This document shows, in pieces, positions 51,038-59,113 of a stretch of DNA of 64,000 nucleotides. Every line of letters begins with the position of its first letter. Position 1 is the stretch's first letter. The DNA is taken from the NCBI GenBank assembly GCA_965198115.1, contig OZ240241.1, positions 3,648,001 to 3,712,000 of the forward strand, read 5' to 3'. A model generated the notes under the pieces. The model had not been told where the DNA came from. It worked only from the letters and a program-made list of their open reading frames with translations, and ran no database searches. This stretch comes from Candidatus Latescibacterota bacterium (lineage in GTDB: Bacteria > Latescibacterota > UBA2968). The translations under genes were made by a program, and so were the position numbers.

Positions 51038-52332
51038 GGGTTTGCCACGAAATAAGTGCTGCACTTTTCAAGGTAATGATCTTACGCTCGGAGTGTGGAC
51101 GTCGAAACTCTCCGAACGAAGTATGAAGCCTTGGCTCCGGTGCTGACGGAACGCACGCGTCGTCTGTGGGCCGCCACGGAAGCCGAAGCGTTGGGTCACG
51201 GTGGGATCGCGATTGTGGCTCTGGCGACAGGAATGTCCAGAGAGCGGATCTTTCGTGGCATTCAGGAGTTGAGGTCGGACGAACCTTTGGACCCGGCTCG
51301 CATCCGGCGTCCAGGCGGCGGTCGTAAGCGGAAGGCCGACACGGACCCGACGCTGTGGCAGGACCTGAATGATCTGGTCGAGCCAACGACTGCGGGGTCG
51401 CCTGACGACAATCCTCTGAGATGGACATCGAAGAGCACTCGCAAACTGGCCGCCGAGTTGCAAGCGATGGGGCATTCGGTGAGCCCCAGGATCGTTGCCA
51501 ATCTCCTGCACGAACACGATTACACGCTGCAGGCGAATCGGAAGACAAGGGAGGGATCTGCACACCCGGATCGGGACGCTCAGTTCGTTTACCTCGATGA
51601 TCGGATTAGCCAGCAGCAGCAGCAGGGCCTTCCCGTTATCTCGGTGGACACCAAGAAGAAAGAGTTGATCGGCGACTTCAAGAATCCTGGCCGAGAATGG
51701 CGACCCAAGGGAGACCCGGAGCGTGTGAAGGTACACGATTTCATAGTGCCTGCTCAGGGCAAGGCGATCCCTTATGGAGTGTATGATCTGAGCCGTGATG
51801 AAGGCTGGGTAAGTGTCGGTATCGATCACGACACGGCCAGCTTCGCCGTGAATGCGATCCGAAGTTGGTGGAAGAACATGGGACGGCCCGCCTACGGCAC
51901 TTCGACGCATCTGCTAATCACGGCGGACGCAGGCGGCAGCAACGGCGCCAAGACGCGGCTGTGGAAGTGGGAGCTGCAGCGCTTTGCGAATCGCACTGGC
52001 CTGACGATCACCGTATGCCACTACCCTCCTGGCACTAGTAAGTGGAACAAGATCGAACATCGCCTGTTCTCCTTCATCGCTATGAACTGGGCGAGGCAAG
52101 CCCCTGGTCAGCCTGGCTGCAACCGTGAATCTCATTGCCGGAACGACCACTCAAGCCGGTCTCCGAGTACGCTCCGAGATCGACAAGCGACCCTACCCTA
52201 ACGGGGTCAAGGTGACCGATGAACAGATGACCCAAATCGATCTCACTCCGCACGATTTCCACGGCGACTGGAACTACACGATCCGGCCAATGGCTCAACA
52301 TTGAGATCGACCGTTTATTTATTCGCGAACCC
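51038..52332 (+). mobile_element. ISAzo13 family IS
   Basis: Imperfect IRs GGGTTTGCCACGAAATAA / GGGTTCGCGAATAAATAA; TAA direct repeats at 51035-51037 and 52333-52335. Confidence 0.9.
51095..52304 (+). pseudogene. ISAzo13 transposase with an extra G near 52090
   Basis: ISVDTKKKE, TADAGGSN, PPGTSKWNKIEHRLF. MNWRGKPL is broken; the shifted frame ends FHGDWNYTI. Confidence 0.88.
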
Positions 52333-52370
52333 TAAGTACTTACCGCCGTACTTCTCGATACTTCTATGGT

Positions 52371-52442
52371 CGTTCCGGGCACCCGCGAACTTGCCGTGGG
52401 TCGAGGGGCGTCAGCCTCGAGCCGCGGGTGCTGCTGTTAGGC
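52371..52442 (-). repeat. attC-like site (R' non-canonical) after the VOC gene
   Basis: GCCTAAC, arms gcacccgcg/cgcgggtgc, then G-ACCATA where GTTRRRY is expected. Confidence 0.55.
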
Positions 52443-52529
52443 GGTGTTGTTTTGACTCTCTCAGCGACCACCGGAGCGTCCACTCCGGGAATGTAGCATC
52501 GAGGCACGGACCGGATCTGTGTCCTGAGA

Positions 52530-52946
52530 TCATCCACGATTCGCCTCGGTCGGGCTCGTGAAGTTGAGGTGGTTACCGAATGGGTCCAGGAGATGCAACT
52601 CCGTCTTCCCCCACGGCTGGTCGACCAGCTCTGTCCCGTGGTGTGTCCCCCCTGCCGCTTCGAGCGCGTCCGGATTCCTGCACTTCAGGTCGTCGTAGAA
52701 CACATACACATCTTCCACATCCAACCCGATTCCGATGCCTTCTGGTACCTCCTTGTGCTCGGTCAGATGCAGAGCCAGCTCTCCATCTGCGATGCCGGGA
52801 CTCTCCCCTCTAGAAACCCCCATAAGCACCGGGAATCCCTCTTCGTGGCGCCACTCGAAATCGATCTTGAATCCGAGGAAATCAACGTAGTAGCGGACCG
52901 CTTCTTCGTAGCTTTTGATGTACAAGCAGGGATATGCACGTGACAT
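52530..52946 (-). CDS. VOC/glyoxalase family protein (gene cassette)
   Basis: YYVDFLGFKIDFEWR, LHLTEH, PWG, DPFGNHL. Confidence 0.88.
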   Translation of the reverse strand: MSRAYPCLYIKSYEEAVRYYVDFLGFKIDFEWRHEEGFPVLMGVSRGESPGIADGELALHLTEHKEVPEGIGIGLDVEDVYVFYDDLKCRNPDALEAAGGTHHGTELVDQPWGKTELHLLDPFGNHLNFTSPTEANRG

Positions 52947-53049
52947 ACCAATCTCCGATCAGATTTCTTGAAGCTGTGCTGTCCGCGATTTCCCGGTCTT
53001 TTTACACCCACCCTAAAGACCTTAGCTAATACAGTAGCCAGCCAATGCC

Positions 53050-53130
53050 GCCTAACGGACAAGGCTGCCCGACGGCGCGAAGCGCTGTTTTGGCGGTGGG
53101 TATGGTGGGGGCGGGCAGCCGCAGTTAGCC
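53050..53130 (-). repeat. attC-like site (81 bp)
   Basis: GGCTAAC..ggctgcccg/cgggcagcc..GTTAGGC. Confidence 0.7.
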
Positions 53131-53223
53131 GCTGTTGCAGTCCCGGTCCCTCACGCGACCCTTCAAGGATGGAAGGGCGTCGCGTAGAGCTATCAGGAAT
53201 CGGTTCCCCTAACTGTCGACCTA

Positions 53224-55676
53224 TCAGGCCAAGCGACTAAGCCGGCTTCTGATGAAGGCCGTGATTTCGGCGAGTTCATCCTCCTCATAGTTCGACTCAA
53301 TGAGATCCCAACAGGAGAAGAATCCTAATCCAGAGGTCTGACGATAGAAATGCAGCCACGAATCACGGTCTGACGGCAAAGGGCCGTCGTAAGCATCGAA
53401 GAAAGCATTGGTGCAAGGGGTGAGGAGATCCTCCCGACCGAACCCAAGATCGAACTCCTGATTTGAGAAATGGAAATAGAGTCGCGAGAGGTCCATAAAC
53501 ACATGCCCCGGGCGCATCCCACCGAGATCAAGGAGGCCGGTCACCCGATCCCCAGAGATCATAATGTTGGTGGCGGAAAAGTCACCGTGGACCAGACAGG
53601 GGGTGAGCTCGTCGCTCAGTTCTTGGATGGTCGTTCTCAACCACGCTTGTAGCTTGGAAGTAGAATCGGCGAAAGGAGTCTTGAGGCCCGATCTTGCCTC
53701 AGTCAGCCATCTCTGGAGCTCGTATTCTCGGGCTGACACGAAAAAGGGGTTCTCCGGTCCTTCGACGGATCGAACTTCACCATCCTCGTAGGTCAAGAAC
53801 CACCAAACAGCGAAAACTGAACGAGACTATGCAGCGTAGATACGATCTTACCGAGTTGCGAGTATACAGACACCGCTACATCGAGTGAAAGGTCACAACC
53901 AATATCTCTCAGATTCTGTCCAGGAATGCGACTCTTGACGAGGAATTCACCGTCCACCCCCGTCACCCGGAGTCCGGTATGTAGAATCCGGGGGAGGAGG
54001 ATTGTGGTCTTCTCAGACAAGATCCGAAGAGCAAGTTCCTCACGATCGACCGATCTCTTCTTTTTTATAGAGACGTGCTGAACGACAACCGCTTCGCCGT
54101 GCCTCGGTTCGATTAGGTATGTGGGTTTGTCAATCCCGCCAGGAGCTCAGGTCAATAGGTGTGTAAAAGAAATCAGGCGGCCATCTTCCCGGTTTCGACC
54201 TGCGGTCCGGTTGAGTGTTTCTGATCGTAGACTTGTTGTAGCAAGTGTGGCGCGGTGAGTTTCCTGAATCGGCTCTCTGCGACCTTGAGCGTACGCCAGA
54301 TGAGAGTCGTGGCGTTCCTGACTTTCTTGAATCGCCTGGCGGCGTTTGTGCGAAGCCGAACGGAAGCAAAGGGGCTCTCGACGACGTTCGTGGTTCTCAG
54401 GTGTTTCCAGTGTTCCTTCGGGAAGTCGTAGAACGTGACCATCCGATCCCAGTCTCTTTCGAGCGTCTCCACGGCGGCAGGGAACTGTGAGCGATACCGT
54501 GCGGCAAAGCGTTTCCGGAGCTTCTCGGCCTCCTTTTTCGTGCCGGCATAGGGGATCTGGACGAGCAGTGCGCGGGCTTCAGCCTGTGCACGCTTGGCGA
54601 CCTTGTCGAGCACGTTGAGGATCTTGTGGTTCCAGCACCGTTGTTGCCGGCTCTCTGGCCAGACCTGATCAACGGCCGCCCAGATGCCCATATTCCCGTC
54701 CGCGGCGATCAGGACAGGATGTTCGAGCCCGCGATCCCGGAGATCCCGGAGCACCGTGAGCCAGGATTCTGTAGACTCTCGATAACCGGGTTCTATCGCC
54801 AGGATCTCCTTGCTGCCGTCGCTCATCGCGCCGATCACGACCAGCAGACACGCCTTCTCGCGCTCGAGCCCGGCTTTGACGTAGATGCCATCAGCCCAGG
54901 CGTAGACCAGTTCGCGATTATCCAGACGCCTTTCTTTCCAGTCCTGGAAGTCGACCTCCCACTTCCCTCGAAGACGAGCGATCGAGGTCGGCGAAAGCGG
55001 CGCGCCATCACCGAGCAGCGCACGCAAAGACAACTCGAAGTCGCCCTGGGAGAGACCGTGGAGATAAAGGTCGGGAAGCAGATCTCCAATGGCCCTGGTT
55101 CTCCGGGCGAACAGGGGGAGGATGCGGCTTTCAAACCGCTCTTCCAGACCACGAACCCGGGGACGCCGGACCTTGATCGTTCCGCAGCTCGTCGAGAGAC
55201 GCCGGGGCTTGCCGTAGCCGTTCCTGTAGCCCCTGGAGCGAACTTGGGAGTACTGTCTACTCGATCTTTCCTGCTTGCCCCCAGGTGTCCACACCGGACG
55301 AGCCTGCGCCGTGGGAAGGGCTATCGACCTCGGCTCGGCGCTCATACCACGACCGGCCCAAGAACGCGGTCGCCTCCTCCTCCAGAATGGACTGGAACCG
55401 GCCCTGGATCTCTTCACGGATCCAATCGTCAACCGTCTCCCACGTCGGCATGGACTTCAATGGGGCTCTATGCGTATGTTCCTTCACGGCGATCCTCCTT
55501 CCCAACCGGGCCTCTCACCCGGTTTTGTGTGAATCAACTATCTCACGGGAAGGGTAGGGTCGCCCTTTCTCTTTTTCCACACCTTTTGATTATAGCTCCC
55601 CGCCAGTCATTTGTTGCACAGACGAGATGTCACATTGGAGAACTTGCTCGAAAACCTGTTGTGAGAATCCGTTCAA
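53224..55676 (-). pseudogene. APH-family phosphotransferase cassette, interrupted by IS256 and two frameshifts
   Basis: Removing the IS joins MTG to GIDKPTY; downstream LVHGDFSATNIM, LLDLG. Confidence 0.75.
54143..55598 (-). mobile_element. IS256 family element, copy A (transposase frameshifted by an 82-bp insert)
   Basis: IRs gagctataatcaaaaggtgtggaaaa / gagctcaggtcaataggtgtgtaaaa; 8-bp TSD cccgccag (54135-54142, 55599-55606); YRNGY, WADG, QRCWNH, RTTN. Confidence 0.93.
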
Positions 55677-55680
55677 CTGT

Positions 55681-55754
55681 CTCTCACACTGGACTCTGGC
55701 GGCGCAGGGCACGCGCAACCGACCGGGACTGTGATGGCGGCTGCGGTGTTAGGC
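55681..55754 (-). repeat. Degenerate attC-like site (74 bp)
   Basis: GCCTAAC after the methyltransferase stop; R' reads GTGAGAG; arms pair weakly. Confidence 0.4.
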
Positions 55755-55825
55755 GTAGGCGGCTCCTTTCGGGCAAAGCCAATTGAGGAGAGTAATCGTC
55801 GCACGGTAGAACCAACTGGTGGGTC

Positions 55826-56614
55826 TCAGACCCTCTGGAGTATCAAGTAGATGTTCCCGAGTTCCCCGGACAGGTTCTCCCTGTCTTTCAATTCTTCGAA
55901 ATCCTCGCCGTATATCGCCACAATCTCAAACTGGCCAGATCGTTCAACCAAACTCTCGAGATCATCAAAAAGCCACATCCTTAAGGTGTGGCGGTCTTCA
56001 AGGTGTTCTAGCCTATCGTCTTGTTCGACTTGAAAGGAGCAAATCTCGTGGCTGAGCTTGGATTCCCTGTCTTCGGTGATGATTTCCCAGGAGGTTTTCA
56101 CGCGGATTCCGTCACGTACCATCGTCCAGCGGTCGTCGGGATCTCCGATGCCTTGAAGTTCGCCATCCTGAGCAAGATTCAGATGGACGATGTAGACACC
56201 GTTCTCTCGAAGGGAGGAACCCGTAGCTTTCAGGTGGGCGATCACATCGGCATCGGAAAGCAGATAACGAAAGCTGTTGATCGAATTATAAGCTGCATCG
56301 AATTCACCATGGATCTCAGACGAAACCATGTCGGCCAGTAGAATCTTAGCATCTTTCAGGCAGCCGGCGTCCGAGACAGATTGCTCCGCGTATTGGACCA
56401 TAGCAGGGCTTATGTCATAGCCTGTCACTCGAAACCCGTGTTTAGGAAGCACCCTCAGAAAGCGACCTGAGCCGCAGGCCGGTTCCAGCAAACGTGTCAC
56501 CGTAAACGGTACGTGTGTTTCGAATACCCTCTTGAAGAAGGCAACTTCGCGTGAAAGGTCCCAAGAGAACGCGATGTCGTAGATCTCAGGATGATCGTAG
56601 AGTTTGAAGCTCAC
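55826..56614 (-). CDS. Class I SAM-dependent methyltransferase (gene cassette)
   Basis: LLEPACGSGR, GYDIS.AM, ADM, FDAAY..INSF. Confidence 0.9.
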   Translation of the reverse strand: MSFKLYDHPEIYDIAFSWDLSREVAFFKRVFETHVPFTVTRLLEPACGSGRFLRVLPKHGFRVTGYDISPAMVQYAEQSVSDAGCLKDAKILLADMVSSEIHGEFDAAYNSINSFRYLLSDADVIAHLKATGSSLRENGVYIVHLNLAQDGELQGIGDPDDRWTMVRDGIRVKTSWEIITEDRESKLSHEICSFQVEQDDRLEHLEDRHTLRMWLFDDLESLVERSGQFEIVAIYGEDFEELKDRENLSGELGNIYLILQRV

Positions 56615-56649
56615 GTGTTTTCGTGCCCCTCAGTTTCTTAGCCGCTTAC

Positions 56650-56739
56650 GCCTAACGGTTTCACAATTCACGACGCCGCGAATGGGGGGTGCCGAAGGCC
56701 AAGCGCCGCAAGGCGCGCAACGGGAATTGCTGGTTAGAA
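56650..56739 (-). repeat. attC-like site (90 bp)
   Basis: TTCTAAC-cag-caattc..gaattg-tgaaacc-GTTAGGC with internal hairpins. Confidence 0.75.
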
Positions 56740-56784
56740 GACGGGATACTGCAACTTGTGCAAAAACTCGTCTCAGAGCAGAAA

Positions 56785-57780
56785 CTACCTTTGAGGGATC
56801 TTCACCTGGGAAAATTGAAAGTTCGGTCCTTTGGTATAAGTGGCCCCAAGACCCAGCCCCCAGTCATACGGCCCGGGGCCGGCTTGCTCTTCAGCCCACG
56901 CCTTCAGCGGAACACTATCCCATTCGTCCGTAAACCAGTATTGCGACGACGGATTGCCGATCGGGTCTTTGCCGAGCCGATCTGAACCATCGCCCGTGGC
57001 CCCCAGTAGCTGCCGTCGGATAGGCGCACTGCGGGCAATCACCTCTGGATCCTGTTCTATATAACCGCTCGGTCGTATCCATCTGGGCGCATAGCTGATA
57101 TAGAGGGCCTTGCGGAAGTTTGTGGAAAGGTTGGGGGTCACACTGTGCAAGATCGTGGGCCGCCATAGCATGGCGCTGCCGGCCGGTACGCGCAATGCGA
57201 AGATGTCCTCCGGATCGAGCCAGGACTCCCAGGTAGCCCGTTGCTCTCGGGTCCACTGGTAGCTACCGGGCACCATAAGGATGGTGCTGTGACCAGGCTC
57301 GGTATGATCCGAAACGTACCAGCCGACCTTAAAGTCCAGGAGGGGCATGCGGCCATCTATCGTCGTGCCAGCGAATTCTTCTTCATAATCGAAATGCCAT
57401 CCCAGCGATAATACGTCGGGATCGGTGTCGCCAGGCTGCGGCGCTTTATAGTCAAAAACGCTATCGCGATTTTGAATATTCCAGCCCATGGCATCGACGA
57501 CCAAGGGCAGGATGCGGGGATGATCGAGCAAGTCCATTATGACCTCATGACGTGCCACCGCATTGCGGACGACGACGCTGTCATTGGGACCCAAGCCACG
57601 TACTTTCCGAAGCTGCTCCGCCACCTCGTCCATACCTGCCCACAAGCGTTCTAGCTCGGATGGGTTCAATACACGCTCTAATACCGTGAACCCCTGTCCG
57701 TTGAGTTCATCTTTCTGTTGATCGGTCATAGCTATTGTCATCTGATTTCCCTCTACTTTTGTCGCAAATGCATCCTGCAA
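56785..57780 (-). CDS. PhyH family dioxygenase (gene cassette)
   Basis: QGFTVL, WHFD, VPGS, PAGS..LHS..N. Confidence 0.87.
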   Translation of the reverse strand: MQDAFATKVEGNQMTIAMTDQQKDELNGQGFTVLERVLNPSELERLWAGMDEVAEQLRKVRGLGPNDSVVVRNAVARHEVIMDLLDHPRILPLVVDAMGWNIQNRDSVFDYKAPQPGDTDPDVLSLGWHFDYEEEFAGTTIDGRMPLLDFKVGWYVSDHTEPGHSTILMVPGSYQWTREQRATWESWLDPEDIFALRVPAGSAMLWRPTILHSVTPNLSTNFRKALYISYAPRWIRPSGYIEQDPEVIARSAPIRRQLLGATGDGSDRLGKDPIGNPSSQYWFTDEWDSVPLKAWAEEQAGPGPYDWGLGLGATYTKGPNFQFSQVKIPQR

Positions 57781-57792
57781 AATACTCCTGTT

Positions 57793-57950
57793 GTCTAACG
57801 TTTCAGCAATCGCGAAGCCGGCCCTTCGGCAGGCTCCCTTCGACTTCGCCCCTCGACTCCGCTCGGGACAGGCTCAGGACAGCAGGACAGGCTCTCGCCG
57901 GTTTGGGTGGCTGGGTTCTTGGGCAGGGGGGCGCGTCCGCGGTGTTAAGT
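57793..57950 (-). repeat. attC-like site (158 bp; 88 bp without the nested repeat insert)
   Basis: ACTTAAC..ccgg/ccgg..cgcgattgctgaaac-GTTAGAC. The right arm resembles that of the 56650 site. Confidence 0.55.
57822..57891 (+). repeat. Three nested copies of a ~23-nt CCCTTCGAC-N3-GCTCAGGACAGG unit
   Basis: Outer 57822-57835 + 57883-57891; middle 57836-57849 + 57874-57882; inner 57850-57873. Confidence 0.7.
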
Positions 57951-58045
57951 GTCCGTGCCGGTGCCAGTGGTTGAGGACGCGAGTATAGAAGCATCGTCGT
58001 CTTGAGGTCTTGGTGACCAAGGCGTTCCTGAATGGTCCGGATGTC
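57930..58045 (-). pseudogene. intI: C-terminal fragment of an integron integrase (IntI)
   Basis: DIRTIQERLGHQDLKTTM, then (1-nt shift) FYTRVLN; matches IntI box II DIRTVQELLGH.D..TTMIYTHVLN. Confidence 0.75.
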
Positions 58046-58062
58046 GTTAAGCTGTCTGCAGA

Positions 58063-58857
58063 CTAGCGCTCCACGATGTGGGCAAACAGCGGCCTGACCT
58101 TCTCGGGTAGCGCGGCGTACGTCTCGGCCGTAATCAGCTGCACGTCTTCAGGCCGGGTCCCGGTCTCTTCGGCCACGCGTTCGTACTCGATTGTGCCAGG
58201 GATCAGGTGATTCAGGTTAAGCCACCAGGGCGCATACCGGACCACAACCGCGACCCGGGTGCGATCGCTGACGTTGGCGGCCGTGGCGTGCCACATCCGG
58301 CTATCGAGGATCAGCACGTTCCCGGCTTCGCCCGTGGCCTGCATCTCGGTCGGATATGGAGCGTGAGCGTCGACGCCGATGTTTCCGGAGGGATTGCCGG
58401 GTGCTCTATGGCTCCCGGGAACCAGAAGCGTACCGCCTGTTTCCTTGGTGAAGGTCGTCAGCATCCATATCGTCGTCAGGTGCATGACGGCGTCGGCGTA
58501 GGGCGCCGGAATATGTCGGGACTGCTTCTGGCCGAACGGCCAGTCTGAGTGCCAGTTGTCCCGTTCCTGCCCCGGCGTGGTGACCAGTCCCGTGGTAAAC
58601 GATACCCGTGCGTACGGGCCGAAGAATGCCTCCACGATGCCCAGCACACGGTCGTCCGCCAGATAGGGCGCCAGGGATTGGTTGTAGGTGATAAGGCCCC
58701 TAAGGGCGTGTCGAGCGCCCTCTTTACCCCTGGCGTCGGACCTCGCGGTTTCAACGATGCTCTGGCAGACTGCGTCTACCTCGTTCTCCGGTATGACGCC
58801 GGGAACAACGCACCATCCGTCCATCTTGATGCGCCGCACCGCTTCTTCTTTTGACAA
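58063..58857 (-). CDS. PhyH family dioxygenase
   Basis: DGWCVV, WHSDWP, VPGSH, DSRMWHA..N..R; GAGGAGG RBS. Confidence 0.9.
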   Translation of the reverse strand: MSKEEAVRRIKMDGWCVVPGVIPENEVDAVCQSIVETARSDARGKEGARHALRGLITYNQSLAPYLADDRVLGIVEAFFGPYARVSFTTGLVTTPGQERDNWHSDWPFGQKQSRHIPAPYADAVMHLTTIWMLTTFTKETGGTLLVPGSHRAPGNPSGNIGVDAHAPYPTEMQATGEAGNVLILDSRMWHATAANVSDRTRVAVVVRYAPWWLNLNHLIPGTIEYERVAEETGTRPEDVQLITAETYAALPEKVRPLFAHIVER

Positions 58858-59113
58858 GCCAACCTCCTCGCCATCACTATTGTAAGAGCGGCAACGTCAC
58901 TCCTATCGAACGCGTGGCATGTTCTGACACGCCGATGACGGGTCGTTTGCGGACTACTAAAGGCAACCACCAAGACACGAAGACACGAAGAAAGGCAACC
59001 GAGACAGCACGTTCCCACACGCCTCGAGCCCGAGAAGATGGCCGTCATGCGGCCCGACGCCGTCACCCTCGGAGACGTCTACCTGATGGTATCCCACGGG
59101 CGACAAACAACTC

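Follow-up and report, generated by a model that had tools for sequence, protein, structure and literature searches.

How could a sequence of 23 nt come to lie inside copies of itself? The question is raised by a 70-nt stretch at positions 57822-57891 of the window, the whole 64,000-nt stretch of DNA analysed here, which corresponds to positions 3648001-3712000 of a single 8.43-Mb contig (G000:C1), 59% GC. A preliminary description made from the letters alone had recognised this stretch as three nested and diverged copies of one short element. The present analysis supports that reading as correct in essence and the feature as real. We attribute the nest, with a probability of roughly 0.55, to three successive insertions of a non-coding hairpin of 23-24 nt, inserted singly, without target duplication and next to a G, and likely spread by small GIY-YIG single-strand nucleases together with host repair.

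Structure and verification of the nest

The 70 nt were parsed as three self-inserted layers of 23, 23 and 24 nt, the inner and middle layers being removed by script and the outer layer being parsed by eye from the sequence. All layers were assigned to the minus strand, which carries the leader and the tandem-GA hairpin in the orientation of the outer unit. The outer unit (23 nt) is formed by a 14-nt part at 57822-57835, the 3' arm of the hairpin on the minus strand, and a 9-nt part at 57883-57891 that includes the 4-nt leader. It is interrupted at GCT|CAGG (plus strand), a bond common to 39 loci outside this genome, by the middle unit (23 nt), whose 13-nt and 10-nt parts, delimited by the script, occupy 57836-57848 and 57873-57882, the latter lacking one terminal base (the last G). 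Within the middle unit, an intact 24-nt unit occupies 57849-57872. It belongs to a subfamily with a compensated, two-sided change of one stem pair (T-A to C-G), of which the genome holds 5 exact matches and 19 with at most one mismatch. The insertions had been placed at about the same GCTC position of the previous copy; the positions are near-identical, but the bonds lie one base apart, the inner unit having entered at G|CTCAGG.

Next to the nest, at 57892-57895 (same strand), come the target C and three bases reading TCT on the plus strand, where homologous empty sites have different loop bases; judged from this comparison, TCT is likely a donor-derived overwrite. Subtracting 70 nt from 57794-57951 leaves 88 nt, the length given earlier for the emptied site. 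The target of the insertion is a small hairpin within the site. Two family relatives (L013, L015) have homologous sites that are empty and form this hairpin with a loop of 4 nt, so removal of the 70 nt restores the ancestral length.

The nest is spanned by contigs of sequencing runs X6 (57507-58400) and X7 (57560-58079) with 0 differences and 0 gaps, the two runs representing one sample, probably the source, and not an independent strain. Because these contigs cross the nest unchanged, an assembly artefact is excluded. No piece of runs X8-X11, X1 and X3 spans the site; those of X9 and X11 diverge into different sequence after 57803. Among 30 relatives, only homologous sites were found and no orthologous empty allele of the nest locus. 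A search of 52000-59000 against Rfam gave no match at E<=0.5.

The unit and its copies in the genome

The consensus of the unit on the plus strand is CCCTTCGAC-N2-3-GCTCAGGRCAGG (23-24 nt). Read on the opposite strand, a leader of 4 nt and a stem of 4 bp are followed by G-A, a mini-stem of 2 bp with a 2-3-nt loop, a second G-A and the closing arm. A scan of the genome for further copies, suggested when the nest was noticed, recovered 156 matches at no more than 2 substitutions, whereas one shuffled genome gave none, which rules out a chance origin. Matches with stand-alone tails (21 of the 156) were left out and all counts below rest on the remaining 135, a set selected for this tail type in which the leader is CCTG in 102 units, CTTG in 11 and TTTA in 10.

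The innermost stem pair is T-A in 99 units and C-G in 29, one-sided changes being limited to 4, and a second stem pair also covaries (C-G in 125, A-T in 7). Since stem pairs covary, the alignment points to a unit that acts as a structure read on one single strand. On its own, the unit has a weak minimum free energy fold (-0.5 to -1.2 kcal/mol), and because the folding model does not score sheared G-A pairs the structure rests on the covariation. The search pattern itself partly imposes the constancy of the GA motif.

The unit is multicopy and mainly extragenic: long open frames contain 18 of the 135 units, against 175 of 300 random positions. In-frame copies, which had been anticipated, do exist. 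Two histidine-kinase paralogues (G000:C1:393375 and 4795580) carry a unit translated as PSASSGQA just before the ATPase domain, and a third paralogue at 475584 is empty of it. The genome also contains at least eight distinct short repeat families with 8 to 113 matches each, and many of them host the unit.

Empty sites and insertion junctions

Each of the 135 units was excised in silico and an empty paralogue of the resulting site was searched for at E<=1e-3. One was found for 87 units, whereas control excisions gave an empty match in 8/135 cases at random positions, 9/135 at random non-ORF positions and 5/135 at neighbouring positions. This search superseded an initial test with 77 joins per site, which was too loose (85 units versus 56 controls at one hit). 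In 69 of the 87 sites with an empty paralogue, the net gain equals the exact unit length. Target-site duplication was rejected by this gain and by the ungapped junction alignments, and the unit does not show the combination of terminal inverted repeats and target-site duplication that characterises MITEs.

Many families with no relation to one another serve as hosts: hairpins led by GTCA, perfect palindromes, families of direct repeats and relatives of the unit itself. A G directly precedes the leader in 127/135 units, and the matching C follows the unit in 19/20 units of three other genomes and in 66/87 phage-contig matches. The same host bond was found to be taken by different unit subfamilies, which implies repeated arrival or exchange; in some cases a filled copy may have been amplified together with its host repeat, as a composite. 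Thus the preliminary description of an ultra-short mobile unit landing in hairpins and in its own sequence holds for a large set of sites, and the unit likely ranks among the smallest known pieces of mobile DNA.

The junctions of the 87 sites fall into three classes: 22 are precise, 44 have the 3 bases after the junction C replaced (mostly by TCC) and 21 are of other kinds. At informative positions, the donor base is present in 37/61, 39/52 and 35/51 cases for the first, second and third base after the junction, and in 1/29 for the fourth. On the hairpin strand, the edge of the overwrite lies 8 nt before the first stem base. The nuclease SsnA is described as releasing a 20-nt 5' fragment from the NTS75 oligonucleotide (PMC11893778). 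From the length of this product and the NTS75 sequence we derived a cut 8 nt before the palindrome. By this comparison the overwrite edge would match the SsnA cutting distance, with a shift of one base if the alignment is made on the tag and not on the stem. The TCC overwrite is limited to some lineages, with 4/17 cases in relatives, 0/20 in three distant genomes and 4/87 phage-contig matches.

Self-nesting and spread across bacteria

Using a strict script, 3 nests were detected in the genome, and 3 further degenerate nests are visible. Outside it, 18 genomes contain the exact double-nest pattern at GCT|CAGG, with 39 loci in all, 16 of them in one genome. These records span Chloroflexota, Planctomycetota, Acidobacteriota, Armatimonadota, Deinococcota, Patescibacteria, Omnitrophota, Verrucomicrobiota and a deltaproteobacterium (9 named phylum-level groups). 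In 26 of the 39 nests, both halves distinguish the inner copy from the outer one, and in 4 the two copies are identical. Deeper nests, of four to six levels, occur at L049, L052 and L071, forming (left half)n(right half)m arrays in which n and m are sometimes unequal. In an Anaerolineae MAG, a double nest (L035:151-194) lies within an apparent ABC-transporter ATPase gene, an insertion into unique coding DNA.

The distribution is patchy, the unit being present in 7 of 31 genomes (this genome and its relatives) and in 39 of a sample of 201 Chloroflexota; it was also found in at least 132 phage-contig stretches. The flanks of L135 contain units with the CCTG leader and different compensated stems, nested at one bond in the hairpin of a nuclease gene. 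Since these units with differing stems nest at the same bond, the leader and the G-A motif may define the mobile unit, rather than the stem sequence.

Small GIY-YIG nucleases as candidate partners

Two small GIY-YIG genes were identified in the genome, with matches to PF01541 and none in NCBIfam. The gene at 510446 on the minus strand (L002, G000:C1:508.9-510.7 kb) is bracketed by inverted tandem-GA hairpins, the downstream one carrying an inserted unit. It is split by an IS256 element of 99% identity to the IS256 of the window, with an apparent 8-bp target duplication, and is likely a dead autonomous partner. The gene at 214165 has a related repeat in its flanks and no ATG, GTG or TTG start in the 43 codons upstream. 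The preliminary description saw no mobilising enzyme in this stretch; none is clearly intact in the genome, but the small GIY-YIG nucleases found elsewhere are candidates.

Hairpins of the tandem-GA family often stand on both sides of homologues from metagenomes and other genomes. This family thus flanks single-domain GIY-YIG genes, and the unit is present there only as an insert: units lie inside nuclease-flanking hairpins at L002, L076, L135 and L284, and no inspected locus showed the unit itself on both sides of a nuclease gene. A quick tree (88 protein rows, 98 columns) contains a 47-row clade (SH-aLRT 97) that holds all 17 genes that are hairpin-flanked on both sides as well as both genes of this genome. 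Hairpin-flanked rows make up 33/47 inside the clade versus 9/41 outside, for a background of 0.042. The two genes of this genome, and many of the partner genes considered here, fall beside and not inside a 19-row subclade that we take to be Ssn-like from its motifs, and in this they may differ from the Ssn/SRM system. At three loci (L073, L074, L078), GIY-YIG genes with inverted hairpins lie directly behind apparent tRNA or tmRNA 3' ends, the start region overlapping the hairpin.

Co-occurrence with a nuclease, one of the checks proposed when the nest was noticed, was evaluated on 28 Chloroflexota genomes with at least 5 exact units and 28 unit-free ones, the latter chosen at 3-5 Mb. GIY-YIG profile matches were found in 23/28 unit-rich versus 3/28 unit-free genomes, with a Fisher p of 1e-7 that is overstated since kin genomes are not independent; the 5 unit-rich genomes lacking a match are incomplete MAGs. 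Inspection of the loci placed a gene in the hairpin-flanked clade for 16 unit-rich genomes, and the best hits of three controls fell outside it; this placement covers the three controls, one further control hit lying outside that set. Within 500 nt of the unit, 0 of 80 phage loci had a GIY-YIG profile match. From the co-occurrence and the kinship of the hairpins, we infer that nucleases of this clade may drive the spread of the unit.

Proposed mechanism and alternative explanations

In the reading that we prefer, the nuclease would bind the hairpin on exposed single strands and nick it 4 or 8 nt 5' of the stem, so that a 24- or 28-nt piece would be freed or primed. Another extruded repeat, nicked at a G, would then be joined to this piece at the nick, the opposite strand serving as a splint, and the 28-nt form would overwrite three target bases. 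The donor site would be restored from its other strand, and host ligase and repair would complete and amplify the event. As the unit is itself such a hairpin, it would also be a target, hence the nests. The unit would be a non-autonomous passenger of a nuclease-hairpin system, invading that system's hairpins as well. GIY-YIG enzymes are known as hydrolytic nucleases and not as strand-transfer enzymes, so the joining step of the proposal is an assumption.

A more complete statement would be that the unit is a transposase-free element of 23-28 nt: a tandem-GA hairpin cut from single-stranded DNA by a GIY-YIG nuclease of about 100 residues and ligated into nicks in repeats with a gain of 23 or 24 nt, its three-base overwrite recording the cut site in some lineages, a hyperparasite across at least 9 phyla and the first sequence-level evidence for how CGTC/SRM-type repeats spread. 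Taken as a whole, we advance this statement tentatively, at something short of even odds. On the spread of such palindromic repeats, the published text covered describes no dedicated transposase (Di Nocera et al.) and cutting but not movement (Chenal et al.). For the unit, empty sites can be paired with filled ones, the ends are exact, the same target bonds recur and the overwrite stops sharply; from these features together the cut position of a partner nuclease is predicted. Since the junctions predict this position, the question is testable with a few oligonucleotides and a 100-residue protein. The unit would also set the lower size limit for a replicating DNA element, and it accounts for short in-frame peptide inserts in proteins and for nested A-A-B-B repeats that resemble assembly errors.

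An alternative is that the unit is mobile without GIY-YIG nucleases, by an enzyme-independent or host route (template switching at stalled hairpins, RNA-templated repair) or by an unidentified recombinase, the GIY-YIG genes merely sharing its hairpin family and its lineages. Precise, duplication-free insertion and a short-patch overwrite fit copy-choice repair, 5/28 unit-rich genomes have no GIY-YIG profile match, this genome has no clearly intact GIY-YIG partner, and the cyanobacterial repeat SDR5 is cited at second hand as inserting precisely within HIP1 with directed cutting as only a partial explanation (PMC4390886). Left unexplained are the bracketing of one small-nuclease clade by a single hairpin family, the 23/28 versus 3/28 co-occurrence and an overwrite edge that would fall at the SsnA cutting distance, and we consider this alternative rather unlikely.

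Still less probable is the action of a HUH (Y1) transposase of RAYT or IS200 type, which would move the unit through cleavage of single strands followed by strand transfer, the mode proposed for REPs and REPINs. The absence of target duplication, the conserved junction base, the imperfect hairpin and the 4-nt leader do recall REP/TnpA-REP substrates (PMC8266576), and the genome has 75 Y1 matches; yet nearly all of these belong to one multicopy IS200, and a family hairpin was found near 2 of the 56 loci checked. The co-occurrence with RAYT or other HUH enzymes that had been envisaged for the unit failed to appear, Y1 being present in 16/28 unit-rich versus 20/28 unit-free genomes (p 0.40). Moreover, REPINs are described as doublets of REPs that carry a GTAG tag and have a Y1 partner (PMC3116915, PMC8266576), whereas the unit is a singlet of 23-24 nt with no Y1 association, no GTAG tag, no repeat-flanked Y1 gene and no C|T junction.

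Finally, local replication slippage, with the halves duplicated separately, or an assembly artefact can hardly have produced the nest: unequal half counts in some deep nests (L052) and the 4/39 nests with identical copies are what slippage would give, but the run contigs span the nest unchanged, its three layers differ, the inner one being of a separate subfamily whose two-sided change is found elsewhere in the genome, 26/39 outside nests differ in both halves, and unrelated hosts that have empty paralogues contain single units. The diverged nests are thus as hard to ascribe to slippage as had been argued from the window. As a general origin, slippage is refuted by the empty paralogues and the layer differences; since nests of the L052 type have unequal halves, slippage or deletion acts on nests afterwards.

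Comparison with known repeats

Small dispersed repeats (SDR) of cyanobacteria are reportedly the subject of Elhai et al. 2008. They are the nearest precedent in size and behaviour, a likeness drawn from behaviour and from a definition taken at second hand. In the partial accounts available (PMC2884548, PMC4390886), these repeats of about 20 nt are thought to be mobile and SDR5 inserts precisely at a fixed bond. The unit also shows precise insertion of a sequence of this size at a fixed bond; it differs in spanning many phyla and in having a candidate nuclease.

Chenal et al. 2025 (PMC11893778) describe SsnA (cd10448) as cutting single strands at NTS/SRM hairpins and raise an IS-like origin as a hypothesis. 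The unit resembles the SRM in being an oriented short hairpin with a 5' leader, and members of its family bracket single-domain GIY-YIG genes. The leader described for the SRM is CGTCA, whereas that of the unit is CCTG-like and its stem contains a tandem G-A motif. The published SRM motif is matched by 0/135 units and by 74 sequences elsewhere in the genome, and the text of Chenal et al. covered here reports no insertion events, nesting or target overwrite. The unit therefore works like a passenger on an Ssn/SRM system and is not a member of it by the published motif. In the part of the Minerva preprint covered (10.64898/2026.09.22.753630), SsnA loci serve only as a benchmark.

The CGTC-tagged REPs are described by Di Nocera et al. 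2013 (PMC3733652) as short palindromes, repeated outside genes, that lack a dedicated transposase. A GTCA leader reminiscent of them is present in several host repeats and in the stand-alone relatives of the unit. The unit itself has no CGTC tag, its outer stem is of 4 bp, and it is mainly an insert in other repeats, unlike the free singlets and dimers described for these REPs. A literature search, motif sequences included and with subscription journals mostly outside its coverage, returned no published account of the unit. It joins the known ultra-short repeats and is distinctive by its exact junction rules and its testable nuclease partner.

The host site and its surroundings

The nest lies in a degenerate attC-like site at 57793-57950, with RYYTAAC at 57793 and GTTRRRY at 57944, its R'' and R' core boxes conforming to the 55-150 nt spacing expected of attC sites. 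The preliminary description placed the unit inside an attC loop; the R boxes are present, but the emptied site forms no R-paired attC stem on either strand (fold z 0.21 and -0.51) and the insertion occupies the small internal hairpin described above. The neighbouring attC-like sites at 53050 and 56651 do pair their ends on at least one strand. The attC host is incidental, one of dozens of host repeats, and attC was ruled out as a special target, the unit having also inserted in coding DNA and in direct repeats that form no hairpin. Group IIC-attC introns and IS1111-attC elements likewise insert into attC-like sites; in the accounts covered they encode their own enzyme and prefer attC, whereas the unit is non-coding and has dozens of hosts.

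Four other attC-like ends lie between 52.4 and 56.8 kb, forming with the host site an array without an intact integrase. Genome-wide, no integron-integrase match to TIGR02249 was found above the cut-off. Beside the host site, a frameshifted remnant of an integron-integrase C-terminus was detected at 57989-58054 on the minus strand (TIGR02249 275-296, E 2.9e-4), the strand of the cassette ORFs; one cassette-like ORF, of the PhyH family (56785-57780, minus strand), adjoins the site. Because no intact intI exists in the genome, the attC cluster at 52.4-58 kb is a CALIN. It is interrupted by an IS256 (54173-55432) and by an ISAzo13-type transposase (51095-52201). Elsewhere in the genome, one near-identical IS200-type transposase is hugely expanded, with about 50 loci, many of the copies being truncated or frameshifted.
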